Part shown: piece after piece, positions 2,238 through 27,066 of the stretch
How the letters are laid out: each line of letters opens with the position of its first letter
How positions within the stretch are numbered: position 1 is the stretch's first letter
DNA from: Candidatus Pacearchaeota archaeon
GTDB lineage: Archaea; Nanobdellota; Nanobdellia; Pacearchaeales; GW2011-AR1
Assembly: GCA_017609915.1 (NCBI GenBank)
Contig: JAFCDA010000001.1
Coordinates: 5,033 to 69,032, forward strand
DNA length: 64,000 nt
Direction of reading: 5' to 3'
The notes under the pieces: model-generated
Seen by the model: the letters and a program-made list of their open reading frames with translations, nothing else
What the model was told of the DNA's origin: nothing
Database searches by the model: none
Translations under genes and position numbers: made by a program

Positions 2238-2289
2238 GATATTCTTTTTATCTCTTAAATGAGATTCCTTTCTATTTAAAAATTATTGT

Positions 2290-4080: not shown

Positions 4081-4133
4081 AATTTTAAATAATTTAGGGC
4101 TTCTTAAAGATTATTAAGGTTGGATAGGGTATC

Positions 4134-5254: not shown

Positions 5255-5344
5255 ACAAAAATACTACAAGCTCATTATATAAAGTTTTTTATACTCCCAA
5301 CCCTTTAAAAAAGGCTTGACCTAAATTTTAAAATCATAGAAAAT

Positions 5345-6462: not shown

Positions 6463-6492
6463 TGATATATTGGGTTTTTAAGGTTTATTGTT

Positions 6493-8037: not shown

Positions 8038-8146
8038 TTTATATTGTTTATCTGGAATTTGATAAGCTCAATTTAGTTTTGAAGATGATTTGTTTAACTT
8101 AATCTTATCTTCTCCAAAGCTCTAGGTTTAATAAGATATTGATATT

Positions 8147-9307: not shown

Positions 9308-9413
9308 GATTTTTTTGAGAAGTTGATTGTTTATAAAGTTATATTGGATATACTTAATAAATTGTTTTTTTGTTCTAGTAACATTTATATAGTTTTCCAA
9401 AGGTATTTTACTT

Positions 9414-10829
9414 ATGGCTAATAAAATAAGGAAACTCATCATTATTGGGATAGATGGGGGGACCTTTAATGTTTTAAATCCTTTATTCCAAAAAGGGTTA
9501 TTGCCTAATTTAAACAAATTTAAGAATAAACTAATACTTGAATCAACAATTCCTCCTGGAACTGCTGTTTCTTGGGCAAGTTTCTCAACAGGAAATCTAC
9601 CTGATAAAACAAATATTTATGATTTTACAATTGTTAGTGAAAATTCTTGGAAAATAAATTTTGTTAATAGGAAAATAGCTAAAGGTAAAAAATTATGGAA
9701 CTATCTTGATGAGGCAGGATTAAAAAGCTGTTTTATTAATCTTCCTTTGACTTATCCTGTTGAGGAAATAAATGGGGTTATGATTTCTGGAATTGATACA
9801 CCAAGCAAATTAAGCAATTATACTTATCCTAAAGAGATTAAAGAAGAATTAAATAAAATAGGATACGAAATAGAAGTTTCTGGTTTAAAAGAAAAATCAG
9901 AAGTAAGTGATGAAGCACTTGCAGTTTTGGATAAAAGAATAATAATTGCAAGGAAATTTTTAAAAGAAAACTTTGATTTTTTTATTGTTTTATTTAGAGG
10001 AAGTGATGTTGTTCAACATTATGCTTGGGGAGAAAATCAAGTTGAAGATGCTTACAAAAAAATAGATAAATTTATTGGAGAGGTTCAAGATTATTGTGGA
10101 AAAAATAATGCTGACTTAATGGTTATATCAGATCATGGTGAAGAAAAAGTCAATAAAGCTTTTAATATAAATTCTTGGTTAGAAAAAGAAGGATATCTTA
10201 AAACTCATATAAAGAAAAAGAATGTTCTTTCTTATCTTGGAGTTAATAGGGAAAGAATTTTCAAAATTTTAGAAAAATTACAATTACAATTTTTAGTAAG
10301 AGTTATTCCAAGAAATATTGGTAAAAAAATACCTACAAAACAAATTAATTTTGAAGAAGCAATAATTACTAAACAAATAGATTTTAATCAAACAAAAGCC
10401 ATTGCTAAACGAGCTGTTAAAACAGCACAAATTTTCATAAGTAGTGAAAAAAGAAAAGGAATTGTTAAGAAAGAGGAAATAAAAGAACTTAAACAAGAAA
10501 TTAAGAACAAATTAAAAAGATTTTTTGAAAAAGAAAAATTAGATGTTATAATTAAGACTAAAGAAGAATTATATCCAAATAGTGAAAATTTTGCTCCAGA
10601 TATTAATTTATATTTTAAAGAAAAAGGTTATGATATCACTGCTTCTTTTTCATCAAATAAGGGCTTATGGAATAATCCTCGAGAAAAAGCAACTCATAAT
10701 AGTGAAGGAATTTTATTTACAGATATAAATATAAAATCAAAATCCCAAAAAATTATTGATTTAGCACCTACAATTTTGAAATATTTTAATATAAAAAAGA
10801 AAAATTTTGATGGAGAAAGTTTAATTTAA
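9414..10829 (+). CDS. alkaline-phosphatase-superfamily phosphodiesterase / nucleotide pyrophosphatase-like protein
   Basis: IIIGIDGGTFNVL metal-site N-terminus and DHGEEKV motif typical of type I phosphodiesterase/NPP (PF01663-like) fold. Confidence 0.6.
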   Translation: MANKIRKLIIIGIDGGTFNVLNPLFQKGLLPNLNKFKNKLILESTIPPGTAVSWASFSTGNLPDKTNIYDFTIVSENSWKINFVNRKIAKGKKLWNYLDEAGLKSCFINLPLTYPVEEINGVMISGIDTPSKLSNYTYPKEIKEELNKIGYEIEVSGLKEKSEVSDEALAVLDKRIIIARKFLKENFDFFIVLFRGSDVVQHYAWGENQVEDAYKKIDKFIGEVQDYCGKNNADLMVISDHGEEKVNKAFNINSWLEKEGYLKTHIKKKNVLSYLGVNRERIFKILEKLQLQFLVRVIPRNIGKKIPTKQINFEEAIITKQIDFNQTKAIAKRAVKTAQIFISSEKRKGIVKKEEIKELKQEIKNKLKRFFEKEKLDVIIKTKEELYPNSENFAPDINLYFKEKGYDITASFSSNKGLWNNPREKATHNSEGILFTDINIKSKSQKIIDLAPTILKYFNIKKKNFDGESLI

Positions 10830-10830
10830 A

Positions 10831-11592
10831 CTAAGTATATCCTAAATCTCTTAGTCTTTGCATGATTTCTTCTCTTACTATTCCTCTTCCAGCCCTTTCA
10901 TGGGCATTTGGATCATCATTTATCTCAGTACAATGGGTACATCCCAAAGAAGTATATCCTTTAGCATAAAGGGGATTACATTTTATATCAAATTCTTTAA
11001 CATAATTTAAAACATCTTCCTGTGTCCAAAATAATAAAGGATGAATTCTAAAATGTGTATCTCTTGGTGAAACAATTGTTTCTTTTGCTCTTTCTTCATG
11101 TTCTACTCCTCTAATTCCTGCCATAAATGCTGATAATTTCAAATCTTCAATAGCTTTTTTTAAAGGAGCGATTTTATGATATCCACAACAGATTTCAGTA
11201 AAATCTGGGGTTTTCCATCCAAATTTTTCTTTTATACTTTCTAATCTATTTTCAGGAGCTTTAACTTCATGGAAATTAGTTAATCCCCATCCCTTGATAA
11301 TTTCATCAATATACTTGTAAGTTTCTTCAAATTGATGTTGAGTATTAACAAAAATTATTGGTAAATCTTTAGGGATTATTGGTAAAGCTACATGCAATAA
11401 AACAACACTATCTGTTCCACCACTAAACCCTAACCCTGTAGTAGGATATCTTTCAATAGTTTCTCTTATTATTTCTTGAGATTTTCTTATTTTTTTATGC
11501 AAAGGCAATTCTGTAAGTTTTTTAATTTCTTCACTCATTAAATCTATACATCTTTGAGTTCTATTAGCTTTTGTATATTTTTCATCTACCAT
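10831..11592 (-). CDS. PAPS/APS reductase family protein (PP-loop, CC...CxxC iron-sulfur type)
   Basis: GLGFSGGTDSVVLLHVA PP-loop, EICCGYHK and C-terminal GCTHCT cysteine pairs as in thioredoxin-dependent APS reductases. Confidence 0.65.
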   Translation of the reverse strand: MVDEKYTKANRTQRCIDLMSEEIKKLTELPLHKKIRKSQEIIRETIERYPTTGLGFSGGTDSVVLLHVALPIIPKDLPIIFVNTQHQFEETYKYIDEIIKGWGLTNFHEVKAPENRLESIKEKFGWKTPDFTEICCGYHKIAPLKKAIEDLKLSAFMAGIRGVEHEERAKETIVSPRDTHFRIHPLLFWTQEDVLNYVKEFDIKCNPLYAKGYTSLGCTHCTEINDDPNAHERAGRGIVREEIMQRLRDLGYT

Positions 11593-11665
11593 TTTTTTAT
11601 TGATTAGATTTAATTAAATATAATGACTATTTAAAGATTATTATGTTTAGATATAGATGAATCAT

Positions 11666-12874
11666 CTATTCTAAAAATTTCATAAGGTAACTATCTCCAG
11701 AATAAATATTAATAGATTCTTCAGGGTCTTTTTCTAAATCATATTCTTCTATTTTCTCATGATGGCTTGCCTTACACAAATTACAAAAATTATTTTTTGC
11801 TAAAATTAATTTTCTGTTTTTGGTTCTTACAGTTTTAATATCTTCACAAAGCCCATCAAATGAAAAAATCTTATCCCTAATTGGCTGATTAGTTTTTATT
11901 AAAGGTAAAAAAGATTTTCCATCAAATTCTTCTTGTGTTTCTAATTGAAGATAATCTAAAATACTTGGGACAATATCAATGTCTTGAACAAATTCTGTTA
12001 TTTTTTTAGATTCAAGTCCTGGAAAATGCATTACAGAGGGAATATGTATTGAATCTTCATATAATCCTGAAGAACTAAAATAAATTCCCTGCTCTGTTAA
12101 ATTTGTTCCATGATCTCCTACAATTATTAATATAGTGTCTTCCCATAAATTTTGTTCTATTAAAACCTCTTTAATCCTTTTTATTTCATTATCTATATCT
12201 TTTATTGAAGTGTCATATTTATTTATCATATCTTGGATAGTGTAAAGTTTTTTTCCTTCAATTCTCTTTTTCAAATATTCTCTCTGACTTTCATCTTTAA
12301 TATTTTCTAATGTTTTTTGAAAATCTGTTTCATTATTTTCTGATTCATATTTTGTATTTGGAAAAGGAAAATGAGTATCCCATATATGCATAAACAAGAA
12401 AAAAGACTTGTCTGTGTTTTGATTTTCTTTTATTTTAGAAATAGCTAAATCTGTCATTTCGTTTATTGGAGCAAATGGTGCTGGAGATTTTTTAAAATCA
12501 AAATTTTCTCCTTCCCCATAATAATTAAATCCTCGTTTAAACCAAAGTCCAATCCAATCTACACAAATTGTCTCATATCCTTTATTTTTCAAATATTCAG
12601 GAAACCAGAATTTTACTTTTTGAACTTTATCAATTTCTTCTTGCTTAGTATATGGGAGTTGATGAATTACTCCATGATTATTTGGATATTTTCCAGTAAA
12701 TATAGAGCTTAATGCAGGAGCAGTAGAATTTGATGCTGAAAAATAATTATCAAACCAGAGATTTTCTTTTGCAATTTCTTTTATGTTTTTATCTGTTTCC
12801 TTATGATAACCATATAAACTTAGATTTTTTCTTCTAAAAGCATCTACAAGGATGATAATTATATTCTTTTTCAT
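11666..12874 (-). CDS. sulfatase-fold (alkaline phosphatase superfamily) hydrolase/transferase lacking FGly cysteine
   Basis: IIILVDAFRR metal-binding N-terminus and GDHG motif; sulfatase signature CxPxR replaced by TAPAL (Thr nucleophile as in phosphotransferases such as EptA/LtaS). Confidence 0.6.
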   Translation of the reverse strand: MKKNIIIILVDAFRRKNLSLYGYHKETDKNIKEIAKENLWFDNYFSASNSTAPALSSIFTGKYPNNHGVIHQLPYTKQEEIDKVQKVKFWFPEYLKNKGYETICVDWIGLWFKRGFNYYGEGENFDFKKSPAPFAPINEMTDLAISKIKENQNTDKSFFLFMHIWDTHFPFPNTKYESENNETDFQKTLENIKDESQREYLKKRIEGKKLYTIQDMINKYDTSIKDIDNEIKRIKEVLIEQNLWEDTILIIVGDHGTNLTEQGIYFSSSGLYEDSIHIPSVMHFPGLESKKITEFVQDIDIVPSILDYLQLETQEEFDGKSFLPLIKTNQPIRDKIFSFDGLCEDIKTVRTKNRKLILAKNNFCNLCKASHHEKIEEYDLEKDPEESINIYSGDSYLMKFLE

Positions 12875-12922
12875 TTTACTTAATTAAATTTAATTACTGT
12901 ATTTAAAGATTTATGAGTAAAA

Positions 12923-13150
12923 CTAGTCTAAATAACCTAGGGCTTTTAATCTCTTTCTTATTGCCTCTTCTTCTTCCTTAGAAAATCCTTCTCCTTTAGT
13001 TTCTGGAGATTCAGATAATAATTGCCTTAAAATAAAGGTCACATATGCTGAAGGAGAATGCATCCCAGTTCCTTTTATCTTTTCTTTTATTTTATCTACT
13101 AATTGGGTTGGTAGAGAGATTGTACTAAATTTTGATTTTTTATTTTTCAT
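12923..13150 (-). CDS. ribbon-helix-helix (CopG/Arc-like) small protein
   Basis: 75 aa; STISLPTQLVDKIKEKI beta-strand-helix pattern of RHH; C-terminal tail RKRLKALGYLD. Confidence 0.4.
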   Translation of the reverse strand: MKNKKSKFSTISLPTQLVDKIKEKIKGTGMHSPSAYVTFILRQLLSESPETKGEGFSKEEEEAIRKRLKALGYLD

Positions 13151-13229
13151 AATTTACTTAAGAATATAGAGATTTTAAAACTTTCTTAATTAAGCATATC
13201 TTTAAAAATATGAGGTAGATTTAATTAAT

Positions 13230-13346
13230 ATGACTGAAGAAAACAATAATGAAGATAATAAAGATAAAGAAGAAGATAATGCATATACTCCTGAAGAAGA
13301 ATTAGAAGTAAAAAAAAGACTTGAGAGCTTGGGGTATTTGGATTAA
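13230..13346 (+). CDS. small acidic ORF (38 aa) ending in the same KKRLESLGYLD tail, hypothetical
   Basis: Not in ORF track (short); ATG 13230 to TAA 13346; tail matches C-terminus of neighbouring RHH protein. Confidence 0.2.
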   Translation: MTEENNNEDNKDKEEDNAYTPEEELEVKKRLESLGYLD

Positions 13347-13442
13347 ATATAACTTTCTTAGTGTCTCTAATCATAATTAGGACTTAAACTTCTCTTCTTT
13401 AAAGCATTATATTTTATAATATATAGATTAGAATTTTGGTTT

Positions 13443-15155
13443 TCACATTCTCTTTTTTAACAAATTGTCTCTGATTAATAAATAATTTCTTCTCAAAAAA
13501 TCTAATTTTTCATAATGATAAACTTCTATTTTGTATAAAAAACTTGTAATCCAAAACTGCATTCCGCATTTTCTACATGGCAACATAAATTGGTAACGAA
13601 ATTTGTTTTTAATTAAACAATTTTCATACTGAATTTTTTCATGGCAAAAAGGACATTTAACCTTAACCCTGTATCTATCTTTATTTGTTTTTTTAATTTT
13701 GAGGGGAATAACATAACGAGCATATTTTCTTCTTGCATCTACTATATCTTTTTTTAATTTCAGAATTTCATTATCTGTCATTTTATCAGTCATATTTATC
13801 CAATTAGTATGGGCTATTTTGTTTTTAATAAAAGATAATTTATCTTTAATAATTCCTTTTTTAATACAATGGTGATAAATAGCACTTCCAGGATATGGTT
13901 GAATAAATCCTATTCTAATTGAAGAATCTAAAGGAATATAACCAATGCCTTTTGTTATTTTTTTCCAATAATTAAGAGTTTTATAAGCAGTTTCTTTTGT
14001 TTCAGCAACATCTCCAAAAATAAAATTTCCTTGAATACCTATACCTACTTCTCTTGAAAGTTTTATAACATTATCAATTTGTTGAGGGGTTATTGGTTTT
14101 TTCATACTTTTAAGTACTTTTTCACTATAACTTTCAAAACCAAAACCAACAACAGTACATCCTGCATCTTTTAATGTTTTTAATAATTTTTTATCTACTC
14201 CAGCCACTACTAGTTGACAAGTCCATTTAATTTTCCAAGGTGTGTTTTTAATAAGTTTTTTTATTTTTTTACAAAACTCATATACTCTTTCTTTATTAAC
14301 TGAAAATAAATCATCATAAATTTCAATAGCATTGATTTTATATTTTTTTATTGCTATTTCAAGTTCTTTAATAACTGAATCAATTTGCCTTTCCCTATAT
14401 TTTCTTCCAATACTATGATAACAAAAAGTGCATTGAAAAGCACACCCTCTGCTGGCAAGTATTGGGTAAGACCTTGGATAATCAAATTCTCCATAGAGAA
14501 AATAAGAATTACTTTGATTTTTTAATTTTTCTTCATATCCAAATCCTTCAAAATCTGGCAAAGGCAAGGAATCTAAATCCATTATAAGCTCTCTTGGTTT
14601 TGTGAAAAAAGGTTTTTTATTTTTTGGTTTTGTGAAAAAAGGTTTTTTATTTTTTATATAACCTATTCCATTTATTTTGCTTAAGTTTCTTTTTTTTTCT
14701 AAACATTTTAATAACTCGATTATTGTTGTTTCTCCTTCACCAACTACTACAAAATCTGGGTGTAATGATTTAAGCATTAATTCTGGTTCGCTTGTTATTA
14801 ATGCTCCTCCCACAATAGTTTTTGGTTTAGAAGGATGATTTTTAGCTGCTTTTAATATTTTCTCTATTACCACATAACCTATTCCAGTATGTCCTGAACA
14901 AACAATATCATATTTCTTTTTATTTAATTGTCGAAAAACTAATTCTTCTGTTTTTCCATTTAAATGATTTAAATTTAGGCAATCTACATCATATTTTGCT
15001 TTTTTTAAAACAGCAGAAATATAACCCAATCCTAAAGGAAAATTATACTGATAATTTGTTTTATTGCTCAAATTATATCTTGGAATTACAAGCAATATTT
15101 TCATATTTTCTTTTGTATTTTTTTTAGTGTGTTTTATTAATTTTTGTTTTATCAT
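13443..15155 (-). CDS. B12-binding domain radical SAM protein with C-terminal zinc ribbon
   Basis: Cobalamin-binding N-domain, ASRGCAFQCTFCYHS radical SAM motif, C-terminal CPFCHEK...CRKC; contains in-frame 30-bp tandem duplication. Confidence 0.8.
   Translation of the reverse strand: MIKQKLIKHTKKNTKENMKILLVIPRYNLSNKTNYQYNFPLGLGYISAVLKKAKYDVDCLNLNHLNGKTEELVFRQLNKKKYDIVCSGHTGIGYVVIEKILKAAKNHPSKPKTIVGGALITSEPELMLKSLHPDFVVVGEGETTIIELLKCLEKKRNLSKINGIGYIKNKKPFFTKPKNKKPFFTKPRELIMDLDSLPLPDFEGFGYEEKLKNQSNSYFLYGEFDYPRSYPILASRGCAFQCTFCYHSIGRKYRERQIDSVIKELEIAIKKYKINAIEIYDDLFSVNKERVYEFCKKIKKLIKNTPWKIKWTCQLVVAGVDKKLLKTLKDAGCTVVGFGFESYSEKVLKSMKKPITPQQIDNVIKLSREVGIGIQGNFIFGDVAETKETAYKTLNYWKKITKGIGYIPLDSSIRIGFIQPYPGSAIYHHCIKKGIIKDKLSFIKNKIAHTNWINMTDKMTDNEILKLKKDIVDARRKYARYVIPLKIKKTNKDRYRVKVKCPFCHEKIQYENCLIKNKFRYQFMLPCRKCGMQFWITSFLYKIEVYHYEKLDFLRRNYLLIRDNLLKKRM
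14596..14655 (-). repeat. perfect 2 x 30-bp tandem duplication inside CDS (encodes KKPFFTKPKN twice)
   Basis: ggttttgtgaaaaaaggttttttatttttt repeated head-to-tail at 14596-14625 and 14626-14655. Confidence 0.9.
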
Positions 15156-15241
15156 TTTATTTAGTTTAATTTAGAATATTTAAGATTTATTAATGTATAA
15201 TCATACCTTATTGCCCCCATATTTCTAAGAATTTTACTGGT

Positions 15242-15728
15242 TCACTTTATAACTCTTAATTCAACATGAACTTGAGATACTAAACCACCAAAAAACAAAG
15301 CTAATTTTTCTCTAAGTGGTTTGAATATAAATTTTCCAATTCTTGTGGGTATTAATTCTAATTTGATTATCTCAAACTTTTTTTATTTTTTTATTTTATT
15401 TGGTCCTTCTACAAATACTTTAAATGTCGCATCTGAAAAATAATGTAAATGTTCCATATCATTAAAAGCTCCTTTACTATTATAATAGGGCACTTCAATA
15501 ATAATTACTGCATTTTGCTTACATATTCGATATAACTCATTTAATACTTTTTTGGTTTTAAATAAGATAATATTTGATTCATTAAAACATAATCATAACA
15601 ATCTGCATTTAAGGGATAAGGAAATTTATTAAAATCAAAGCTCTTGAAGATTTTTGGATTTTTTGTATATCTACATTATCCCATCCTTCTCTTATATCTG
15701 GCCCACATCCAAAATTAAGTTTTCTCAT
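15242..15728 (-). pseudogene. class I SAM-dependent methyltransferase (Methyltransf_11-like) pseudogene, two frameshifts and one in-frame stop
   Basis: Minus strand reads MRKLNFGCGPDIREGWDNVDI then continues in +1 frame (FDFNKFPYPLNADCYDYVLMNQ), then another frame (LNELYRICKQNAVIIIEVPYYNSKGAFNDMEHLHYF), stop, then in-frame KKFEIIKLELIP...; breaks lie at poly-A runs. Confidence 0.6.
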
Positions 15729-15813
15729 GATTATAATCACTTCTTATTTTAAAAATTTTTTAGAGTAAAAAGAACGCAATAATGTTTAAAAAGCTTCTTA
15801 TAAAATAAAGTAT

Positions 15814-16686
15814 ATGTTAAAAAGAATAAAAAAAAGAATAAAAAAAAGAATAAGAAAGATAATGAAAGGGTCTTTTTTACATCTAATATTTGAGTATAAA
15901 TGGTATCTTATCAATAGGGCGGCATTAAGAAGATTATTAAAAAAGAATTATAAAAAAAATTTCAAACAACTTCAACCTTCTTCAAAAGTTGCTATTCTTT
16001 TTTTAGGAACCAGGACATATGTTAATCTTTTTCCAAATTATTATAAAAATATAAAAAAATATTTTTTACCAAATATAAAAAAATATTTTTTTGTTTATAC
16101 AGACCAAGTAGATTATCCTTTTTTGTCAAAAAAAGATGTTATTGTTGTTCCTATTAAACATAGAAAATATCCTTTGCCTATGCTTTATACATTTAAATCA
16201 ATAAATAAAGCAGCTGATAAATTAAAAAAATATGACCATATAATCTGGTTTGATGCAGATATGATTGTCAATAGGGTGGTTAAAGAAGAAGAGTTTTTTT
16301 GCCATGATAAACAATTATTTGGGGTCAGACATCCAAATTTTTTAGCTAGAAAAGGAACTTTTGATAATAATCCTAAATCATTAGCTTATGTTCGACCTGA
16401 AGATAATTCTTCTATTTATTATCAAGCTTGTCTTTGGGGAGGTCAATCTAAACCTTTTCTTAAACTATTAAAAGAATTAGAAAAAAGAGTAGATATTGAC
16501 TTATCAAAGAATATTCGTTCAAGAATTTTAGATGAATCTTATTTAAATAAATATTTTATAGAAAAAAAAGATATCACACATGCATATGACCCAACCTATG
16601 CTTATCCTAAAAATCAACCTATTCCCCAACCTTTTAAAAAAAAGATTTTGCATGTTGATTTTAAAAAACATAAAATAATTAAGTGA
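15814..16686 (+). CDS. GT6 family glycosyltransferase (ABO / alpha-1,3-Gal(NAc) transferase-like), DxD type
   Basis: Colinear motifs with vertebrate ABO transferases: FFVYTDQ (HYYVFTDQ), IIWFDADM (VCVDVDM), LFGVRHPNF (LFGTLHPGF), AYVRPEDNSSIYY..LWGG (AYIPKDEGDFYYLGGFFGG), LDESYLNKY (HDESHLNKY). Confidence 0.8.
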   Translation: MLKRIKKRIKKRIRKIMKGSFLHLIFEYKWYLINRAALRRLLKKNYKKNFKQLQPSSKVAILFLGTRTYVNLFPNYYKNIKKYFLPNIKKYFFVYTDQVDYPFLSKKDVIVVPIKHRKYPLPMLYTFKSINKAADKLKKYDHIIWFDADMIVNRVVKEEEFFCHDKQLFGVRHPNFLARKGTFDNNPKSLAYVRPEDNSSIYYQACLWGGQSKPFLKLLKELEKRVDIDLSKNIRSRILDESYLNKYFIEKKDITHAYDPTYAYPKNQPIPQPFKKKILHVDFKKHKIIK

Positions 16687-16749
16687 TGTGGAATTTAATA
16701 CATATTTTAACTACATAAAAGCTTTTAAATTAAAAAGATAGTCAAAAAT

Positions 16750-17823
16750 ATGGAAGAGTATGAAAAAGAGTTTGAAAATAAAAAGATTCTTATTACTGGG
16801 GGTTTGGGTTTTATAGGAAGTAATTTAGCTCATAAATTAATTCAACTAAATCCTCAAAGAATAGTTGTTGTAGATTCTCTTATTCCAGAATGTGGAGGAA
16901 ATGAGCATAATTTAGATAAAATTAAAGAGGAAATTGATATTTTTAATGTAGATATAAGACAGACTAAAACAATGGATGCTATTATAAGATCATTAAAACC
17001 TGATTTTATATTTAATTTAGCAGGATTATTAAGTCATACAGAAAGTTTAAAAGATCCAAAAAAAGATGCAGAAATAAATGCATGGGCACAATACAATATA
17101 TTAGAACCTTGTAAAATAAATAAGAATAAAGTTAAAATAATTTATGCAGGAACCAGAGGACAATATGGAAAAGATATAAAAATAATGCCTATTACTGAGA
17201 ATTTATCTACTTTAAAACCTGCAGACCCTAATGGAATAAGTAAAAATTCAGGAGAACAAAGTTGTTTATTTTATGGTGAAAAATTTGAAAATATAAGTGT
17301 CTGTTCTTTGAGAATGACTAATACTTATGGTCCAAAACATCAAATGATTTCACCTAAACAAGGATTTTTAAATTGGTTTATAAGGTTAGCTATGGATAAT
17401 AAAGAAATTTCAGTTTATGAACCTGGAAGTCAATTAAGAGATTTTAATTATGTTGATGATGTTGTTAGAGCTTTATTAATGGCTATGGCTTCTAATAAAA
17501 CAAATAATGAGGTTTACAATCTAGGAAGTTGTTTAAATGATGGATATGAACTAAAAGAGTTATGTGGGAATATAATCTCAGTAAAAGATGTTGCAAAAAA
17601 GATAACTGAAATTTGTCATGAAGAACTTGGAGAGTCTGGCAAATTAATAATGATGCCTTATCCTGAAGAAATGAAAAAAATAGAAGTGGGAAATATTAAA
17701 ATGGACTTTACAAAATTTAATAGGGACACTGGTTGGAAGCCTTTAATTAATTTAGATGAAGGATTAAGAAAAACCATAAGATTTTACAATCAAAATAAAG
17801 AAAAATACTGGGGATTAAAATGA
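16750..17823 (+). CDS. NAD-dependent sugar-nucleotide epimerase/dehydratase (SDR family)
   Basis: KILITGGLGFIGSNLAHKL Rossmann motif, YxxxK region; 4-nt overlap with downstream aminotransferase. Confidence 0.8.
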   Translation: MEEYEKEFENKKILITGGLGFIGSNLAHKLIQLNPQRIVVVDSLIPECGGNEHNLDKIKEEIDIFNVDIRQTKTMDAIIRSLKPDFIFNLAGLLSHTESLKDPKKDAEINAWAQYNILEPCKINKNKVKIIYAGTRGQYGKDIKIMPITENLSTLKPADPNGISKNSGEQSCLFYGEKFENISVCSLRMTNTYGPKHQMISPKQGFLNWFIRLAMDNKEISVYEPGSQLRDFNYVDDVVRALLMAMASNKTNNEVYNLGSCLNDGYELKELCGNIISVKDVAKKITEICHEELGESGKLIMMPYPEEMKKIEVGNIKMDFTKFNRDTGWKPLINLDEGLRKTIRFYNQNKEKYWGLK

Positions 17824-18911
17824 TTCCTTTTGGAAATTTAAAAAAACATTATAGTTTAATAAAATCTAATATTGATAAAGCTATATCTGATGTTTTGCAA
17901 GGAGGGTGGTTTATTTTAGGAGAAACATTAAAATCATTTGAAAAAGAATTTGCAGAGTATTGTGGCAAGAAATATGGGGTTGGTGTTGGAAATGGGACAG
18001 ATGCTTTATTATTAGCATTAAAAGCGTACGGAATCAAGCAAGGTGATGAGGTGATAAGTGTTCCAAATACAGCTATTCCAACAATTTCGGCTATTGTTAG
18101 TTCTGGGGCAAAGCCTGTTTTTGTAGATGTTGGTGAAGATTATTTAATAGATGTTAATAAAATAGAGGCAGCTATAACTGAAAAAACAAAAGCAATTATG
18201 CCTGTGCATTTATATGGTCAAGTTTGTGATATGGAACCTATATTAAAAATAGCTGAAAAATATAATCTTCATGTTATAGAAGATTGTGCACAATCTCATG
18301 GAGCAGAATATAAAGAAAAAAAATCTCCTATTGGAGAAACTGGATGTTTTAGTTTTTATCCAAGTAAAAACTTAGGTGCTTTTGGAGATGCAGGAATGAT
18401 TGTGACAGATAATGAAGACTTAGCAAAAAAATTAAGAATGTTAAGAGATTATGGAAAATCAGAAAGAAATAGTGCTAAACTTCATGGATATAATAGCAGA
18501 TTAGATGATATTCAAGCAGCAATATTAAGTGTTAAATTAAAATATCTTGATATGTGGAATAATGAAAGAAGAAAAATTGCTTTTATATATGATATTTTAT
18601 TAAAAAATAATTTTAAAATCCCTATAGAAAACAAAAATAACAAACATGTTTATCATTTGTATGTTATAAAAACAGATAAAAGAGATGAATTACAAAATTT
18701 TTTGAAAAATAAAGGAATTGGAAGTGTGATCCATTACCCAATACCAATCCATTTACAACCTGCTTATGAATATTTAGGATATAAAGAAGGAGATTTTCCA
18801 AAAGCTGAGCAATATGCAAGTGAAATTCTTTCATTACCTATTTTTCCTGAATTAGAAAATGAAGAAATTCAGGAAGTTGTTAAGGTAATTAAAGAGTTTT
18901 TTGAAAATTAG
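17820..18911 (+). CDS. DegT/DnrJ/EryC1/StrS family PLP-dependent sugar aminotransferase
   Basis: GGWFILGETLKSFEKEFAEYCG..GNGTDAL and PLP-lysine region SFYPSKNLGAFGDAG. Confidence 0.85.
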   Translation: MIPFGNLKKHYSLIKSNIDKAISDVLQGGWFILGETLKSFEKEFAEYCGKKYGVGVGNGTDALLLALKAYGIKQGDEVISVPNTAIPTISAIVSSGAKPVFVDVGEDYLIDVNKIEAAITEKTKAIMPVHLYGQVCDMEPILKIAEKYNLHVIEDCAQSHGAEYKEKKSPIGETGCFSFYPSKNLGAFGDAGMIVTDNEDLAKKLRMLRDYGKSERNSAKLHGYNSRLDDIQAAILSVKLKYLDMWNNERRKIAFIYDILLKNNFKIPIENKNNKHVYHLYVIKTDKRDELQNFLKNKGIGSVIHYPIPIHLQPAYEYLGYKEGDFPKAEQYASEILSLPIFPELENEEIQEVVKVIKEFFEN

Positions 18912-19023
18912 AAGGTGAATAAACTAATATCTTATAAGTATAGGAAAGATATTCAATGAGGAGCTTAAACTTATCAGATAATAAAACTTAAGATTTATAG
19001 AGATATTTAAAATAAAATATAAA

Positions 19024-19932
19024 ATGAATGGAGAAAATTTTTTTAAAAAAAGCTTAATAAAGTCTTATAAAATAGTTAGGGATAGATTTAGTAAATATGG
19101 TTTTGGGAATTTTTATTTTGTTAGAAAAATTAATGCAACTTTTTTAAAATATGTGACGCCTAATTTAATAATAATTAAAGGACATAAAATGTTTTTAGAC
19201 CCCTCAGATTCTTTAAGGCTATCAATATATGGTAATCATGAGACAAATGAAAAAGAGATTTATAAAAAATATATTAAAAAAGGAGATGTTGTTTTAGATG
19301 TTGGAGCCAATATAGGGTATGATACTTTGATTCTTGCAAAACTTGTTGGTAAAAATGGCAGGGTTTTTGCTTTTGAACCAGGCCCGATTAATTTTCAATT
19401 ACTTGAAAAGAATATTAAAATTAATGAATATAATAATGTAACTTTAGTAAATAAAGCAGTTTCAAAAGATAATAAATCGATTAAATTATATTTAAATGAA
19501 ACTAATGGGACAGGACATAAAATAGATGATATAAGTAATTTAGGTGTTAAACTTAACAGAAAATCAATCGATATAGAGTCAATTAAATTAGATGATTTTT
19601 TAAAGAATAAAAAAATTAAAAAAATTGATTTTGTTAAAATAGATGTTGAAGGTTCAGAAAGTGAAGTAATTAAGGGAATGAATAATATTTTTAAAAACAA
19701 TAAATCTTTAAAAATGATATTAGAATTTACTCCTGGTGCACTTAAAAACTATGGAAAAGACCCTAAAAAATATTTAAAAGAATTTATTTCTAAAGGATTT
19801 AAATTATATGAGATACCAGATAAAGGTTCTTTTGATAAAGATAAAATACCAATAAATAATGATAAAGATATTCATGATTTATTAAAAAGATGGGGCAAAA
19901 GTGGAACAAATCTGTTTTGTATAAGGGATTGA
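19024..19932 (+). CDS. FkbM family methyltransferase
   Basis: VLDVGANIGYDTLILAKLVGKNGRVFAFEPGPINFQLL motif of FkbM-type MTases. Confidence 0.75.
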   Translation: MNGENFFKKSLIKSYKIVRDRFSKYGFGNFYFVRKINATFLKYVTPNLIIIKGHKMFLDPSDSLRLSIYGNHETNEKEIYKKYIKKGDVVLDVGANIGYDTLILAKLVGKNGRVFAFEPGPINFQLLEKNIKINEYNNVTLVNKAVSKDNKSIKLYLNETNGTGHKIDDISNLGVKLNRKSIDIESIKLDDFLKNKKIKKIDFVKIDVEGSESEVIKGMNNIFKNNKSLKMILEFTPGALKNYGKDPKKYLKEFISKGFKLYEIPDKGSFDKDKIPINNDKDIHDLLKRWGKSGTNLFCIRD

Positions 19933-20001
19933 GATGTATAAACGAAAAACATATATTGCTCCTAAGATAAATTTTTAAACCATTATATTTACTAACTAAT
20001 C

Positions 20002-20973
20002 ATGAAAAAAAAGGAAATTCCTGTTTCATTGGTTATGCTTACTTTTGAGATAGATAAAACTGAACCAGCAATTAGAAATGCTCTTGAACAAGATTATCCT
20101 AATAAAGAAATAATTGTTGTAAATGACAATCCAAAATTAAAAATTCCTGATTCTATACTTAAATTAGAAAAACAACGTAAAATTAAAATTGTAAATAATG
20201 TAAAAAATCTTGGTATGGCAGGAAGTTTAAATGCAGGAATCAAGGCTTCAAAAACTAATACAATATTATTTACTTGTCATGATTATTTTTTTGAAAGTAA
20301 TCAATGGATTAGACATATTGTAGAAAAACTTTATTCTGATAAAAAACTAGGAACTATTGGTTCTGTTGTTAGATTGCCTATAGAAGAATGGAAAAATTAT
20401 AGTTTCTTAAACAAACTTTTTACATTTAGGCATATGCTTAAACCATCACGTAATTTACATAGTTGTTATAAAAGAGAGGTATTTAATAAATTAGGATTAT
20501 TTGATTCAAAAAATTTTAAGCGTGGTGGAGAAGATGGAGATTTTTATTCTAAGGTTATAAAAGCCGGGTATAAAACAGGGTGTATTGAAGATAGCCTAAT
20601 CCATAAACATTATAATAAAGATGATAGTTTATTAAAAATACTTAGAAAAGAATATGAGTATGGAAGATCTCATGGAGCACGTAAAAGAAAAGATGGTCTT
20701 TTTTCAAGACTGGGTTTATTTGATTTTGAAATTCGTATTTTACTTATACTAGGATTTATAATGGGTTTATTTATTCATCCTATAATAAGTTTTCTTTATT
20801 TTTTGCCTTTCTTTTTTGTAGCTTTATTTAAGTGCATTAAAGCATATCCTCAAACAAAATGGATTCCTGGATTAATTCTTTCTCCTTTTGCAGGAGTACT
20901 TATTTTATTAATCCAAACTATTGGGGCAACAAAAGAATATTTAGTCCTTCCTAAAACTAAAAGCAAAAAATAA
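20002..20973 (+). CDS. GT2 family glycosyltransferase with C-terminal membrane helices
   Basis: VSLVMLTFEIDKTEPAIRNALEQDYPNKEIIVVNDNP GT-A N-terminus; two C-terminal TM helices. Confidence 0.7.
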   Translation: MKKKEIPVSLVMLTFEIDKTEPAIRNALEQDYPNKEIIVVNDNPKLKIPDSILKLEKQRKIKIVNNVKNLGMAGSLNAGIKASKTNTILFTCHDYFFESNQWIRHIVEKLYSDKKLGTIGSVVRLPIEEWKNYSFLNKLFTFRHMLKPSRNLHSCYKREVFNKLGLFDSKNFKRGGEDGDFYSKVIKAGYKTGCIEDSLIHKHYNKDDSLLKILRKEYEYGRSHGARKRKDGLFSRLGLFDFEIRILLILGFIMGLFIHPIISFLYFLPFFFVALFKCIKAYPQTKWIPGLILSPFAGVLILLIQTIGATKEYLVLPKTKSKK

Positions 20974-21051
20974 AAGTGTTAAAATTATCTAGATCCTAGA
21001 TATAGATTTCACAACAATAAATCTTTTAAAGGGTTTAAACAAACTTAATCT

Positions 21052-22473
21052 ATGAAAAAAGTGATATTAATGTATCCTAATTGTAGGTGGAAAAAAGGGT
21101 TTGAAAATAAAACCATATGGAACCTTCATCCTTATAATCTTTGTTTACTTTCTGCAATGATAGAACAAGATTATGAAACTAAAATAGTAGATACTAATAT
21201 TGATGATATATCTAAAGAAGATTTTGTAAAGATTATAGAAGAATATAAACCAGATATAGTTGGAATTTCAGTTCTTACAAATGAATATTTAGATTCTGGT
21301 TTAATTGCTGCAGAAATAGTTAAATCAATAAATTCTGAAATAAAAACAGTTATAGGAGGGGTTGCAACTTTTGATCCTGAATCTATAATTAAAAATGAAA
21401 ACATTGATTATGTTGTAGTGGGTGAAGGAGAATTTACTTTTAAAAAATTATGTAATCATATTTTTAGTGATGGAGATTTGCCATCTAAAGGCCTTGTTTT
21501 TAAAAAAGATGGAGAAATAATAAATCTTGGTCGTTCAGATTTTATAGAAGATTTAGATAGTCTTCCTTTTCCATCATATGATAAAGTTGATTATTTAAAA
21601 TATGCTAATTCAATTCAAAGAGAAAGTGTAGATAGCCCAAGAGAAATGCCTTATGCAAACATAATAACATCAAGAGGCTGTCCTTATAATTGTTGTTTTT
21701 GCCAGGCTGGAAAAATTTCTGGTAAAAAACCAAGGTTTCGTAGTGTAGAAAATATTCTTAAGGAAATTAGTTGGTTAAAAGAAAAATATGGAATAAAAGC
21801 TCTTATTTTTGATGATGATAATCTTCTTGTTGATAAAGAAAGAGCTAAAAATTTATTTAGGGGAATGATTGATAGAGGATTTAATCTAAAATGGAATGCT
21901 ATTGCTATGGCTGCATTTAAATTAGACGAAGAAATGATAGATTTAATGAAAAAAAGTGGATGTCAATATGTAGATATTGCTATTGAATCAGGTGTTGAAA
22001 GAGTACTTCATGATATTATTCATAAACCTTTAAATTTAGAACATGCAAGAGAAGTTCGAGATTTATTAAAAAAATATGAGATTGATTTTGCTGCAAATTT
22101 TATTATGGGATTTCCAGGAGAAACCTGGGATGAAATTAGAAAAACAATTAAATTTGCAGAAGAATTTGATGCAGATTATACTAAAATATTTATTGCAACA
22201 CCTTTACCAAACACAGAATTATATGAAGTTGCCAGAGAAAAAGGTTATTTAAAAGAAAATTTTAGTTTTGATAAACACTTATGGACTGATGGATGGATAG
22301 AAACTGAAGAATTTCGTCCAGAAGATCTAAAAATCTTAAGGGCATATGAATGGGATAGGATAAATTTCTCAAGCCCAGAAAAAATAAAAAAAATTATCTC
22401 TATGATGGACATTAGTGTAGAAAGACTTAATGAGATAAGAAAAAATACACGCAAGAGGGCAAACCCTCAATAA
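21052..22473 (+). CDS. B12-binding domain radical SAM protein
   Basis: Cobalamin-binding N-domain (VILMYPN...VGISVLT..GG) then SRGCPYNCCFCQAG radical SAM motif. Confidence 0.8.
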   Translation: MKKVILMYPNCRWKKGFENKTIWNLHPYNLCLLSAMIEQDYETKIVDTNIDDISKEDFVKIIEEYKPDIVGISVLTNEYLDSGLIAAEIVKSINSEIKTVIGGVATFDPESIIKNENIDYVVVGEGEFTFKKLCNHIFSDGDLPSKGLVFKKDGEIINLGRSDFIEDLDSLPFPSYDKVDYLKYANSIQRESVDSPREMPYANIITSRGCPYNCCFCQAGKISGKKPRFRSVENILKEISWLKEKYGIKALIFDDDNLLVDKERAKNLFRGMIDRGFNLKWNAIAMAAFKLDEEMIDLMKKSGCQYVDIAIESGVERVLHDIIHKPLNLEHAREVRDLLKKYEIDFAANFIMGFPGETWDEIRKTIKFAEEFDADYTKIFIATPLPNTELYEVAREKGYLKENFSFDKHLWTDGWIETEEFRPEDLKILRAYEWDRINFSSPEKIKKIISMMDISVERLNEIRKNTRKRANPQ

Positions 22474-22483
22474 ACTTTATAAA

Positions 22484-23134
22484 ATGAGTCCAAATTTAAA
22501 AAATCTTTCAGATGAAGAAAAAGAAATTAAGATGATTGAGTTTGTAAAAGAGATTGTTGAATTATGGGAAGCTGCAAAAATACCTTATCCTATTCATTTT
22601 AGTGGGGGAAATGAAAAAGAATTAATTAAAATCTTTTCTGAAATTAAAGAAGGAGATTATGTTTTTTCTACGCATAGGGGGCATTATCATTATTTATTAA
22701 AAGGTGGAGATTTTGAAAAGTTAAAAGAATTTATTTTAAGAGGAGATAGTATGCATATTTTTGATAAAGATTTAAAATTTCTTACATCTGCTATTGTTGC
22801 TGGAACTCCCTCTATTGCTGCAGGAGTTGCTTATGCTTTAAAAAAGAAAAATAGTGAAAATAAAGTATGGTGTTTTATTGGAGATGGGGCAGAAGATGAA
22901 GGGCATTTTTATGAAGCAGTTAGGTATGTTGATGGATGGGATTTGCCATGCACATTTATTATAGAAGATAATGATCGGTCTGTTGAAACTCCAAAAAGTG
23001 AAAGATATGGAAAATCTCAAATTCAGTGGCCATCATGTGTTAGAAGATATATGTACAAGCCAAAATATCCTCATGTAGCAACTGAAAATTGGGTTGATTT
23101 TTCAGGAATGAAAGCTGGAGGTCCTTCTTTTTAA
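22484..23134 (+). CDS. thiamine-diphosphate enzyme E1-alpha-like PP-domain protein (truncated, 216 aa)
   Basis: STHRGHYHYLLKG (YRxHG-like) and TPP-binding IGDGAEDEGHFYEAV...FIIEDNDRS (GDG-x-NN-like); stop overlaps next start (TAATG). Confidence 0.6.
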   Translation: MSPNLKNLSDEEKEIKMIEFVKEIVELWEAAKIPYPIHFSGGNEKELIKIFSEIKEGDYVFSTHRGHYHYLLKGGDFEKLKEFILRGDSMHIFDKDLKFLTSAIVAGTPSIAAGVAYALKKKNSENKVWCFIGDGAEDEGHFYEAVRYVDGWDLPCTFIIEDNDRSVETPKSERYGKSQIQWPSCVRRYMYKPKYPHVATENWVDFSGMKAGGPSF

Positions 23135-24774
23135 TGAAATATAAAGAATTAATTAGTGAAGAAATGAAAAAATTAGCAAAAAATGATAAAACTGTCTTTA
23201 TAGGATATAATATTAAAAGAGGTTCAAAAGCTTATGGGACCTTAACAGATGTTCAAGATAAATGTATTGAAATGCCCCTTGCAGAAAATTTAATGACAAG
23301 TTTTGCTATTGGCATGTCTTTAGAAGGCTATAAACCAGTAGTTTTCTTTGAGAGACAAGATTTTATTTTAAATGCCTTAGACTCTATTGTTAATCATTTA
23401 GATAAAATTAAAGAAATGTCTAAAGGAGAATTTGAAACTCCTATAATAATCAGAGCCCCTGTAGGCGGCAAAAAACCTTTAGATCCTGGGATGCAGCATA
23501 CTCAAGATTTTAGTGAGGTATTGAAAAAAATTATTAAATTTCCAGTTTATGAATTAAAAACTGAAGAAGATTTTGCTAATTATTCTAAAATTATTCAAAA
23601 TATAAAAGAACCAACCCTTTTTATAGAGTATAAGGACCTTTATGGAAAAGAAATTGAGCAAAAAGAAAAAATAATTCTTGATAGTCATAAATTAATCTGG
23701 CATACAGAAAGAGTTAATGCATGGTTAAGAGGAGAAAGAATTGCTCCTATAACAATAGATTGCGCATTAACCAGGAGATGTAATTATAGATGTACTTATT
23801 GTTATGGACAATTACAAGCAAATGATGAAAAAAAGATGACTTTAGAGGTAATTCAAAGATTTTTAAAAGATGCTTCTGAAATAGGGGTAAAAGCTGTAAG
23901 TTTTGTAAGTGATGGAGAAAGTTCATGCTCTCCTCATCTTTATGATTCAATAATTTATGGGAAAAAACAAGGACTAGATATGGCTCTTGGAACAAATGGG
24001 TCTTTGCTTAAAAAAGAAGGGCTTAAAGAAGCAATAGAGTGCTTAACCTATCTTAGATTTAATATTTCTGCTGGAGAAAAAGAACGATATAAAGAAATAC
24101 ATGGATGTTCTGATTTAGATTATGATAAAACAATTGAAAATATTAAAGAATGTGTAAAAATAAAAAAAGAAAATAATTTAGATGTTACAATTGGTTTACA
24201 AATGGTTCTCATGTCTGAATTTAAAGACCAAATAATTCCTTTAACAAAATTAGGAAAAGAACTAGGAGTTGATTATTTAGTTATTAAACATTGTAGTGAT
24301 GATGAAGAAGGTAGTTTAGGAATAGATTATGATAAATATTTTGATAAAGATTTAATTGAAAAAATAAAAGAAGCTGAATCTTATTCAGATGAAAATTACT
24401 TAGTTAAAGCAAAATGGTCAAAAATCTTAAGTGGGGGAAAAAGAAATTATTCACGATGTTTTGGACCTCCTTTTATCTTACAGATGTCTGGTTCTGGATT
24501 AGTTGCTCCTTGCGGAATGTTTTTTAATGATAAATATGAAAAATATCATATTGGAAATATAGCTGAAAAATCTTTTAAAGAGATTTGGGAAAGCGATAGA
24601 TATTGGGAAGTTATGGATTTAATTGCTTCTGAAGATTTTGATGCAAAAACAATGTGTGGAACTTTATGCTTGCAGCATAAAGTAAATGAATATCTCTGGG
24701 ATTTAAAAGATAAAGGGGTAACTAATATAGATGTACCAGAAGGAGAAGCTCCAATGCATCTTAATTTTATTTGA
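23134..24774 (+). CDS. fusion protein: E1-beta/transketolase Pyr-domain-like N-terminus + radical SAM/SPASM domain
   Basis: N-terminal ~190 aa match E1-beta Pyr domain (CIEMPLAENLMTSFAIGMSLEGYKPVVFF...IIRAPVGG); then CALTRRCNYRCTYCYG radical SAM and C-terminal Cys-rich SPASM-like region (CFGPPF...APCG). Confidence 0.7.
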   Translation: MKYKELISEEMKKLAKNDKTVFIGYNIKRGSKAYGTLTDVQDKCIEMPLAENLMTSFAIGMSLEGYKPVVFFERQDFILNALDSIVNHLDKIKEMSKGEFETPIIIRAPVGGKKPLDPGMQHTQDFSEVLKKIIKFPVYELKTEEDFANYSKIIQNIKEPTLFIEYKDLYGKEIEQKEKIILDSHKLIWHTERVNAWLRGERIAPITIDCALTRRCNYRCTYCYGQLQANDEKKMTLEVIQRFLKDASEIGVKAVSFVSDGESSCSPHLYDSIIYGKKQGLDMALGTNGSLLKKEGLKEAIECLTYLRFNISAGEKERYKEIHGCSDLDYDKTIENIKECVKIKKENNLDVTIGLQMVLMSEFKDQIIPLTKLGKELGVDYLVIKHCSDDEEGSLGIDYDKYFDKDLIEKIKEAESYSDENYLVKAKWSKILSGGKRNYSRCFGPPFILQMSGSGLVAPCGMFFNDKYEKYHIGNIAEKSFKEIWESDRYWEVMDLIASEDFDAKTMCGTLCLQHKVNEYLWDLKDKGVTNIDVPEGEAPMHLNFI

Positions 24775-24938
24775 ATAAAAAATAATCTTAAAATATTAAA
24801 AGGTAACTAAATAATATCCATATCTTGATAAGAATAACGAGTGAGAAAAAGATTTGTAAAGCTTTAAAATGAGTAGAGATTCAAGATGGTTTGCATAACT
24901 TAAAGATATAATAAGATTCCAGTAAATAATATAAAAAA

Positions 24939-25997: not shown

Positions 25998-26067
25998 TTG
26001 AGTTAACAAATCATAACTACGGAAAATTTTTAAATGAGGTATCAATTAAATAAAAATAATAAAAAAG

Positions 26068-27015: not shown

Positions 27016-27066
27016 AATATATTCAATAAGAATCATCTTTAAAAACAAATCTTTTTTGCAATAAGA

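Follow-up and report, generated by a model that had tools for sequence, protein, structure and literature searches.

The locus described here raises the question of whether glycosyltransferase family 6 (GT6), the family of the ABO blood-group enzymes of vertebrates and of the alpha-1,3-Gal and Forssman transferases, also has members in the Archaea. In 2014 the family was stated not to be found in archaea (PMC3961637), and no later report of an archaeal GT6 was found in a search of the full-text literature, a scope that did not extend to the taxonomic tables of CAZy and InterPro. The stretch analysed, which is referred to as the window, comprises 64,000 nucleotides of a contig from a Candidatus Pacearchaeota archaeon (JAFCDA010000001.1 of assembly GCA_017609915.1, positions 5,033 to 69,032). 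At 15814..16686 on its plus strand lies an open reading frame (ORF) which, stop codon included, codes for a protein of 290 amino acids (aa). An earlier note on this DNA had taken this protein for a GT6 enzyme of the DXD type in an archaeal host and had stressed the rarity of such a gene. As set out below, the protein is a true CAZy GT6 enzyme, and the archaeal extension of the family is real and apparently unreported. The sequences themselves are already public, some of them as "hypothetical protein", with a precomputed Pfam assignment to GT6.

Family membership and predicted fold

Membership of the family is secure because profile searches, comparison with solved structures, alignment with the human enzyme GTA and structure prediction all agree. 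The Pfam model PF03414 (Glyco_transf_6) matches with 57.6 bits (E = 1.1e-15), which is above its gathering score of 25, and the match spans residues 59-288 of the protein and positions 77-310 of the 313 in the model. When the protein is searched against the Protein Data Bank (PDB), the top solved relatives are BoGT6a of Bacteroides ovatus (E = 7e-16, 26% identity) and dozens of human ABO entries (E of about 1e-12). By BLASTP the protein aligns with human GTA over 219 aa at 22% identity (E = 4e-16), vertebrate GT6 enzymes in general being 22-24% identical; the GTA reference was checked against PDB entry 4y62 and is the same except at the engineered positions 266 and 268.

The fold points in the same direction. 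An AlphaFold2 model, built from an alignment of 23 sequences, has a mean predicted local distance difference test score (pLDDT) of 92.4 and a predicted template modelling score (pTM) of 0.87. When this model is compared with the PDB by Foldseek, BoGT6a is matched with a template modelling (TM) score of 0.88 and a root-mean-square deviation of 2.2 Å, and GTA and GTB with TM scores of 0.65-0.70 (about 0.66); the top 50 PDB matches are all GT6 structures. The BLASTP and profile searches that the earlier note had proposed as a check on its GT6 assignment thus bear it out, with PF03414 above threshold, GT6 enzymes as the best relatives and no other GT-A family on top.

Conserved sequence features of the catalytic domain

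The earlier note had also aligned the protein motif by motif with the vertebrate enzymes. All of the motifs it quoted are present in the translation and match GTA column for column: FFVYTDQ corresponds to YYVFTDQ of GTA, FDADM to VDVDM, LFGVRHPNF to LFGTLHPGF and LDESYLNKY to HDESHLNKY. In addition, AYVRPEDNSSIYYQACLWGG aligns with AYIPKDEGDFYYLGGFFGG of GTA, and YYQACLWGG is paired with YYLGGFFGG in the BLASTP alignment. The DXD motif, known for binding metal and uridine diphosphate (UDP), is D147-A-D149 (16252..16260, plus strand, codons gat gca gat). It falls in the same columns as N95-A-N97 of BoGT6a and D211-V-D213 of GTA, so that the motif is indeed DXD and not the alternative NXN.

The donor loop is represented by Q204-A205-C206 (16423..16431, plus strand), which the hmmalign columns make equivalent to L266-G267-G268 of GTA. 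Positions 266 and 268 of GTA govern the selectivity for galactose (Gal) or N-acetylgalactosamine (GalNAc) in the donor. In most prokaryotic and phage DXD forms these columns hold Q-G-C or Q-A-C. Further towards the C-terminus, D240-E241-S242 (16531..16539, plus strand) is equivalent to D302-E303-S304 of GTA and D191-E192-S193 of BoGT6a. The catalytic Glu is accordingly E241, which corresponds to GTA E303 and BoGT6a E192 and is invariant in the subfamily alignment (A1); in BoGT6a the E192Q mutant has low activity (PMC3961637). All subfamily invariants of this alignment are kept in the window protein, namely D147, D149, E241, Y69, K90, G209, G210 and H280, of which Y69, G209 and G210 align with Y126, G271 and G272 of GTA. 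Residues H173, P174 and T182, the W/F-G-G loop and D240-E241 likewise align with substrate-binding residues of GTA and BoGT6a.

Basic residues abound in the C-terminal tail (K275-K277, followed by K284-K285-H286-K287-I-I-K290), and the protein ends nine residues past the last aligned position of the catalytic domain. The K-x-H-x3-K spacing of this tail resembles K346-N-H348-x3-R352 of GTA, the alignments with GTA and BoGT6a both ending before the tail. In GT6 enzymes a conserved C-terminal Lys (K359 of alpha3GT, K231 of BoGT6a) and a second basic residue bind the diphosphate of UDP. There is no Asp at the position of D326 of GTA in the alignment of the two proteins, a residue which we take, from the ABO literature, to be an acceptor contact.

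Archaeal host and gene composition

The contig is archaeal, as the earlier note had said. It carries an operon in archaeal order, S13-S4-S11-Rpb3/RpoD-type-L18e-L13-S9, together with DUF655 and an Rpb4-like subunit. The GT6 gene is situated about 30 kb from these ribosomal and RNA-polymerase genes on one contig, in which the GC content stays between 0.22 and 0.32 throughout. The composition of the gene follows that of its surroundings: its GC content is 0.242 (window mean 0.273 ± 0.025), its GC content at third codon positions is 0.131 (0.134 ± 0.023) and its codon-usage distance is 0.29 (0.33 ± 0.17). All three values are typical of the window, and nothing in the composition hints at a recent import. 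A recent transfer, which the earlier note had suggested and for which it had proposed this comparison, is supported neither by the composition nor by the gene order shared with other DPANN archaea (see below).

Distribution of related proteins

A word-indexed protein search returned 73 homologues, every one with a precomputed PF03414 assignment; the first 42 or so have the DXD motif, while the more distant ones read FNANM. The most similar homologues (45-86% identity, 285-317 aa) have an N-terminal extension of about 45-60 residues, which in the window protein measures about 57. The two closest orthologues, 86% and 72% identical, keep the same features. All named proteins with this extension come from metagenome-assembled genomes (MAGs) of Pacearchaeota, Woesearchaeota or Nanoarchaeota, one cluster member being an NCBI protein from a Nanoarchaeota MAG. 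A scan of the GTDB species representatives gave 39 loci, and the nine closest (41-47% identity) are all of the DXD type: two are from Pacearchaeota, four from Woesearchaeota and three are bacterial multidomain proteins from Omnitrophota, Spongiihabitans and Saprospiraceae (41-45% identity). Among the other 27 bacterial loci examined, 24 have NXN, and the remaining three show variants that are partial or not recognised (D-S-N, N-G-D).

The family as a whole is far more widespread than expected from the earlier note, which had regarded GT6 as essentially restricted to vertebrates, cyanophages and a few strains of Bacteroides and E. coli. Clustered at 50% identity, the proteins returned by an exhaustive HMMER search comprise 1805 representatives at E ≤ 1e-3, of which 926 pass E ≤ 1e-10; many of these proteins are long fusions, and matches in genomes span many bacterial phyla. 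The further claim that bacterial forms are NXN, with DXD a feature of the animal and phage enzymes, does not stand either: among the best 150 HMMER representatives 96 have DXD and 46 NXN, and bacterial DXD forms occur in Omnitrophota, Saprospiraceae, Spongiihabitans and Parachlamydia. The emphasis on rarity and on a DXD motif "like animals" therefore overstated how surprising the gene is.

Viral relatives are numerous as well. Isolated phages account for 72 records, nearly all of them cyanophages, with relatives that are 31-41% identical to the window protein (E down to 1e-38), and at least 328 viral contigs of IMG/VR hold relatives of up to 43% identity. In 80 IMG/VR contigs that were examined, the DXD motif is recognisable in 76 and the median length is 238 aa; the archaeal-type N-terminal extension was seen in none of the 80. 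A recurrent viral fusion protein of 555-556 aa (L045, L060-L062, L071, L074, L076, L077 and others) carries a DXD GT6 domain at its C-terminal end, and its conserved N-terminal half starts with MK[IV]AIVGPGIMPIPPTGWGAVE. In cyanophages, a GT6 gene beside or near a gene for GT11, the alpha-1,2-fucosyltransferase family, is found in Synechococcus phage ACG-2014f (L042, 1-1726), in phages B3 and B23 and in S-CAM9 (L041), the last of which also has a UDP-glucose 4-epimerase two genes upstream. In effect, such gene sets give some cyanophages a complete toolkit of their own for an H-antigen/A-B-like epitope; no such partners were seen among the scanned ORFs of the archaeal window.

Relationships were assessed with a neighbour-joining (NJ) tree of Kimura distances (135 sequences, 224 columns, 100 bootstraps). 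The window protein forms a group with the two relatives P0002 and P0003 at 100%. The phage enzymes are grouped with the DXD forms of 238 aa, human GTA lies among the NXN bacteria, and the NXN enzymes are placed apart from the window protein. A second archaeal GT6 architecture was encountered in a Woesearchaeota MAG (MP5_1_678; L005, 6380-8188), in which a protein of 603 aa has an N-terminal DXD GT6 domain without the cationic extension, followed by a further C-terminal region; in the tree it falls among the bacterial fusions.

The amino-terminal extension and the repeats of the gene

What sets the archaeal proteins apart lies in front of the catalytic domain. Residues 1-57 of the window protein (15814..15984, plus strand) make up an extension which, according to the secondary structure of the AlphaFold2 model, consists of two predicted helices (residues 2-19 and 22-46). 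Its net charge is +16 over residues 1-45, and the hydrophobic moment of residues 1-18 is 0.81. No transmembrane segment is present in the protein, the maximum Kyte-Doolittle mean over 19 residues being 0.71. The extension is kept in about 40 relatives of 285-317 aa and is absent from the phage, bacterial and vertebrate forms. The hallmark of this extended clade is thus a cationic helical stretch of about 45-60 residues with the pattern Y..Y...R..L...L before the catalytic domain, combined with DXD, and the window protein fits this description.

Within the extension, Tandem Repeats Finder reports 3.2 copies of the 12-nt unit AAAAAGAATAAA at 15819..15857 on the plus strand (period 12, score 71, 96% matches), which encode KRIK-KRIK-KRIR. 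This confirms a threefold 12-nt repeat that had been noted a few nucleotides away, at about 15826-15861. L043, an independent sister contig of about 85% identity (SRR21285564), and L044 both have an in-frame gap of exactly 12 nt at this place. This implies that the repeat is real, translated and variable in copy number. The protein P0002 is four residues shorter at the KRIK repeat. M17 was considered as the true start codon, in which case the repeat would be untranslated. It was rejected because the indel between strains is exactly 12 nt and in frame, and because the basic N-terminus is kept as protein in P0002 and P0003.

A second repeat lies in the plus-strand coding sequence at 16048..16091, where an exact match search finds the A/T-only 20-mer AATATAAAAAAATATTTTTT twice (16048-16067 and 16072-16091), each copy encoding NIKKYF. 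The earlier note had described a KKYF duplication here, at about 16051-16095. The 20-nt direct repeat is present, but it adds no length: in this region the protein is as long as its homologues, and P0002 has KKMKKYFLPNTKKDFF in the same columns of alignment A1. An inserted duplication is ruled out by this unchanged length, and the feature is a local direct repeat within conserved sequence. Elsewhere, a perfect 30-nt tandem duplication in frame (14594-14653) is found inside the neighbouring gene for a B12-binding radical S-adenosylmethionine (SAM) protein (13443-15155, minus strand), where KNKKPFFTKP occurs twice. Together with the 12-nt repeat of the GT6 gene, this suggests frequent in-frame duplication of the slippage type in this AT-rich genome.

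Upstream of the start codon, an A/T box TTTAAAAA can be read at 15785..15792 on the plus strand, 22-29 nt 5' of the ATG. It is a candidate archaeal TATA box, possibly serving a leaderless or short-leader transcript, and the intergenic region in which it lies is almost identical in L043.

Genomic context

The GT6 gene is part of a surface-glycan biosynthesis island that was delimited by Pfam scans and synteny at 493..30840. Among the other glycosyltransferases of the island are a PMT_2-type GT-C enzyme, two GT9, two GT2 and a GT4; further genes encode a sulfatase, a protein resembling 3'-phosphoadenosine-5'-phosphosulfate (PAPS) reductase, an FkbM methyltransferase, a pair resembling thiamine pyrophosphate (TPP)-dependent E1 subunits and a Wzx-type flippase. 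The island is also rich in radical SAM proteins (6493-8037, 13443-15155, 21052-25997, 28225-29136), of which four are B12-binding and several are of SPASM types. One is fused to a transketolase-like TPP E1 beta domain and adjoins an E1 alpha fragment. Taken with the sulfatase and the PAPS-reductase-like gene, this richness suggests sugars that are heavily C-methylated or otherwise modified and possibly sulfated.

Directly 3' of GT6, by Pfam, lies a short-chain dehydrogenase/reductase (SDR) of the type of nucleoside diphosphate (NDP)-sugar 4,6-dehydratases and epimerases (16750-17823, plus strand), followed in the same direction by a DegT/PseC-type sugar aminotransferase (17820-18911, plus strand; PseC/ArnB-type). 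The SDR scores best as a 4,6-dehydratase, and the NCBIfam scores of both proteins are all under the equivalog cut-offs. A clear UDP-Gal/GalNAc 4-epimerase was not seen in the window. On the other side, divergent from GT6, is a class-I SAM methyltransferase pseudogene (15245..15728, minus strand) with two frameshifts and one in-frame stop; it was recognised by tblastn with the methyltransferases of L043 and L044, which match in three different frames and across a stop. The orthologues beside GT6 in these two loci are intact (162 aa in L043, 163 aa in L044), and the methyltransferase of the window is either a true pseudogene or the product of sequencing errors in homopolymers.

The gene order around GT6 recurs in other genomes. 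The Woesearchaeota locus L003 is collinear with the window in the order GT9-NDT-GT2-QueC-B12 radical SAM-GT4-GT6. A second Woesearchaeota locus (L006) has B12 radical SAM-GT4...GT6-SDR and a Pacearchaeota locus (L008) B12 radical SAM-GT4...GT6. Between the loci the GT4 proteins are 66-73% identical and the B12-binding radical SAM proteins 64-65%. The sister contig L043 repeats the order radical SAM-methyltransferase-GT6, with adjacency of GT6 and SDR being probable there. GT6 is therefore a conserved component of the island in several DPANN genomes, and this conserved position favours inheritance within the group over a chimeric assembly or a recent transfer.

Other features of the window

A number of features outside the island were recorded. 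A 5S rRNA gene (39781-39895, plus strand) stands alone, adjoining a tRNA-Leu(CAA) gene in the region 39626-39895. There is no 16S or 23S rRNA gene in the window, which is consistent with unlinked rRNA genes. A perfect direct repeat of 44 nt (61522-61565 and 61580-61623, the two copies starting 58 nt apart) overlaps a YbjQ-family gene (61585-61908, minus strand) at its 3' end and is separated by about 2.3 kb from the gene for a tyrosine recombinase (58332-59216); it may be the attachment-site duplication of an integrated element. At 34540-38736 (plus strand) a trio of genes encodes a DUF4956 protein, a CotH-kinase-like protein of 918 aa with a beta-helix, and a VTC-domain protein.

Proposed mode of action

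The most plausible model is that of a retaining, Mn2+/Mg2+-dependent enzyme, which would transfer an alpha-linked hexose from a UDP-sugar to a terminal galactose-type acceptor. Metal dependence is suggested by the comparison of two characterised relatives. PaGT6 of Parachlamydia acanthamoebae, which has DXD and transfers GalNAc to H-antigen or 2'-fucosyllactose, needs Mg2+ or Mn2+ (PMC3516806), while BoGT6a has NXN, a motif linked to metal independence by Pham et al. in 2014, and is metal-independent (PMC3961637). The donor would be UDP-Gal or UDP-GalNAc, a choice which the Q-A-C triplet does not settle. The acceptor substrate would be a lipid-linked oligosaccharide at the cytoplasmic side of the membrane, and the glycan would then be flipped by the Wzx-type flippase of the island for use at the cell surface.

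The N-terminal amphipathic helix, rich in Lys and Arg, may keep the catalytic domain, which is otherwise soluble, at the anionic membrane. In this it would take the role that falls to the transmembrane stem in vertebrates and to the C-terminal basic-hydrophobic-basic (BHB) membrane domain in NXN bacteria (PMC3516806). Each four-residue repeat would add about one helical turn and keep the stripe of Ile residues at positions i, i+4 and i+8. As for its origin, the gene would have been inherited within the DPANN group and not recently imported.

Alternative explanations

That the ORF encodes a functional DXD-type GT6 member belonging to a low-GC DPANN-type archaeon is very probable, and the explanation given above as a whole is held with the same high confidence. 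Several observations weigh against it. The NCBIfam model NF041524 ("family 6 glucosyltransferase") matches residues 58-280 with 159.7 bits (E = 7.7e-47), which is under its cut-off of 250 bits and places the protein, although homologous, outside that curated subfamily. The members of the extended clade, the window protein included, are known from sequence and not from biochemistry, their taxonomic labels are those of binned MAGs, and the function of the extension as a peripheral membrane anchor is proposed from its sequence properties. The phylogeny that the earlier note had called for does group the extension-bearing proteins together, the named archaeal ones included, but with a weak bootstrap of 18%; the deep nodes are unresolved, so that the relation of the archaeal to the vertebrate clade is left without a conclusion. 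Other points concern the chemistry. The triplet Q-A-C fits neither the GalNAc type (L-G-G, A-G-G) nor the Gal type (M-G-A) and differs from every characterised enzyme, and the His of HDES is replaced by L239 in the window protein and its two closest relatives. Among the window ORFs that were scanned (at least 100 aa, with all of that size in the island) there is no GT11 fucosyltransferase to supply the H-type acceptor on which characterised GT6 enzymes act, and the adjoining SDR and aminotransferase suggest an amino-dideoxy-sugar pathway and not the supply of UDP-Gal(NAc). These features would suit a protein of GT6 fold with diverged chemistry, using another donor (UDP-Glc or an amino-dideoxy sugar made by its neighbours) or an acceptor that lacks fucose or is a sugar other than galactose, in which case "ABO-like" would describe its ancestry and not its product. 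The names "family 6 glucosyltransferase" of the NCBI model and "glucosyltransferase" of one phage homologue lean the same way. Against this, all characterised GT6 enzymes, the DXD enzyme PaGT6 among them, transfer Gal or GalNAc in alpha-1,3 linkage (PMC3516806), and the window protein has the residues listed above that align with substrate-binding ones of GTA and BoGT6a. The change from His to Leu may also be tolerated, since in the BoGT6a complex His and Asp contact the donor sugar through backbone atoms (PMC3961637). Diverged chemistry is therefore a possibility to be kept in view, but on balance an unlikely one.

The remaining alternatives concern the history and the integrity of the gene. 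Horizontal gene transfer is thought to be part of the history of GT6 (PMC3516806), and the nearest relatives outside the archaea are DXD enzymes of cyanophages, of other viruses and of bacteria. A degraded methyltransferase gene adjoins GT6, and an integrase lies about 42 kb away in the window. A recent acquisition from a cyanophage-like virus or a bacterium, in place of a long-standing archaeal gene, is nonetheless highly unlikely given that GC content, GC content at third positions and codon usage are indistinguishable from the rest of the window, that viral and bacterial sequences reach at most about 47% identity compared with 72-86% for extension-bearing relatives, that the 80 viral contigs examined lack the archaeal-type extension, and that several independent DPANN MAGs have the gene at the corresponding position of a collinear island. 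The uncultured source organism and the MAG bin labels of the related loci could also raise the suspicion that a bacterial or viral GT6 fragment was joined to an archaeal contig by assembly or binning. Such an artefact is scarcely credible, as the linkage to archaeal ribosomal and RNA-polymerase genes comes with uniform GC content, both flanks of GT6 (the B12-binding radical SAM gene upstream and the SDR gene downstream) recur in the independent, 85%-identical L043, and the gene order of the wider region is found again in at least three further MAGs, which come from different studies. Equally remote is the idea that the locus is decaying and the enzyme no more than an inactive relic or pseudo-enzyme: the adjacent methyltransferase pseudogene, the slippage-type repeats within the gene and the lost His of HDES would fit such decay, but the ORF is full-length with all subfamily invariants kept, the 12-nt indel is in frame, the AlphaFold2 model is highly confident, and the 86%- and 72%-identical orthologues retain the same features. 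The preferred reading is thus that of a working GT6 enzyme that belongs to the archaeal lineage.

Significance

The window physically links a DXD GT6 gene that appears catalytically intact from its sequence to archaeal ribosomal and RNA-polymerase genes, and with about 40 relatives in DPANN MAGs the gene is a conserved feature and not a curiosity. The range of the ABO family is thereby extended to the third domain of life. The archaeal proteins also provide a prokaryotic branch, metal-dependent by analogy, in which the divergence of DXD and NXN forms and the proposed horizontal transfers behind the vertebrate genes can be studied. Moreover, they may point to a capping of the alpha-Gal/GalNAc type in the little-known surface glycans of episymbiotic DPANN archaea. 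This significance is tempered by the fact that the catalytic domain is ordinary and the family is widespread in environmental bacteria and viruses.

A bolder scenario, which is speculative and rather improbable in its entirety, would have the Woesearchaeota/Pacearchaeota group possess its own long-resident lineage of the ABO family. Its enzymes would end the surface glycans in "blood-group-like" epitopes of alpha-Gal or alpha-GalNAc, which might help the archaea to attach to host cells or to mimic them, and the enzymes would be tethered to the membrane by a lineage-specific cationic amphipathic helix, the length of which is tuned by 12-nt slippage. Should the lineage prove ancient, the history of GT6 would come to include a third domain of life, with a bearing on the origin of the metal-dependent ancestor of the vertebrate ABO genes.

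Comparison with known systems

Thiyagarajan et al. (2012) divided GT6 into three clades, in which the minimal DXD enzymes of prokaryotes and viruses form clade 1 (PMC3516806). With vertebrate GT6 enzymes, such as human GTA and GTB and the bovine alpha-1,3-galactosyltransferase, the window protein shares the DXD motif, the catalytic Glu, the aligned motifs and the GT-A fold. Unlike these type II Golgi proteins, which have a transmembrane anchor and a stem, it is without a transmembrane segment, and in the donor triplet the L-G-G or M-G-A of vertebrates is replaced by Q-A-C. With BoGT6a and the NXN enzymes of bacteria (E. coli O86 WbnI type) it has in common the fold, the catalytic Glu (E192 and E241, respectively) and the minimal size of the catalytic domain. 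By analogy with BoGT6a, it would be a cytoplasmic enzyme of surface-glycan synthesis that needs a module for membrane association. It differs from BoGT6a in having DAD instead of NAN, and its putative membrane module is an N-terminal basic amphipathic helix instead of a C-terminal BHB domain. Since the defining features of both groups were looked for and are absent, the window protein belongs neither to the NXN clade nor to the vertebrate type II architecture.

Judged by its sequence, the window protein is closest to the minimal DXD clade of prokaryotes and phages, which comprises the cyanophage enzymes of the P-SSM2 type, homologues from marine metagenomes and PaGT6. It shares with them the DXD motif, a Q-[GA]-C donor loop and the DES core at 31-43% identity, and the cyanophage enzymes (31-41% identical) are nearer to it than those of Bacteroides or humans (22-26%). 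It departs from this clade in its archaeal host, in the Leu that replaces the His of HDES and in having no adjacent GT11 gene, which some of the phages do have. Above all, whereas the minimal enzymes consist of the catalytic domain alone (about 238 aa), the window protein adds a cationic extension of two helices and about 57 residues that is found in the DPANN-type clade only.

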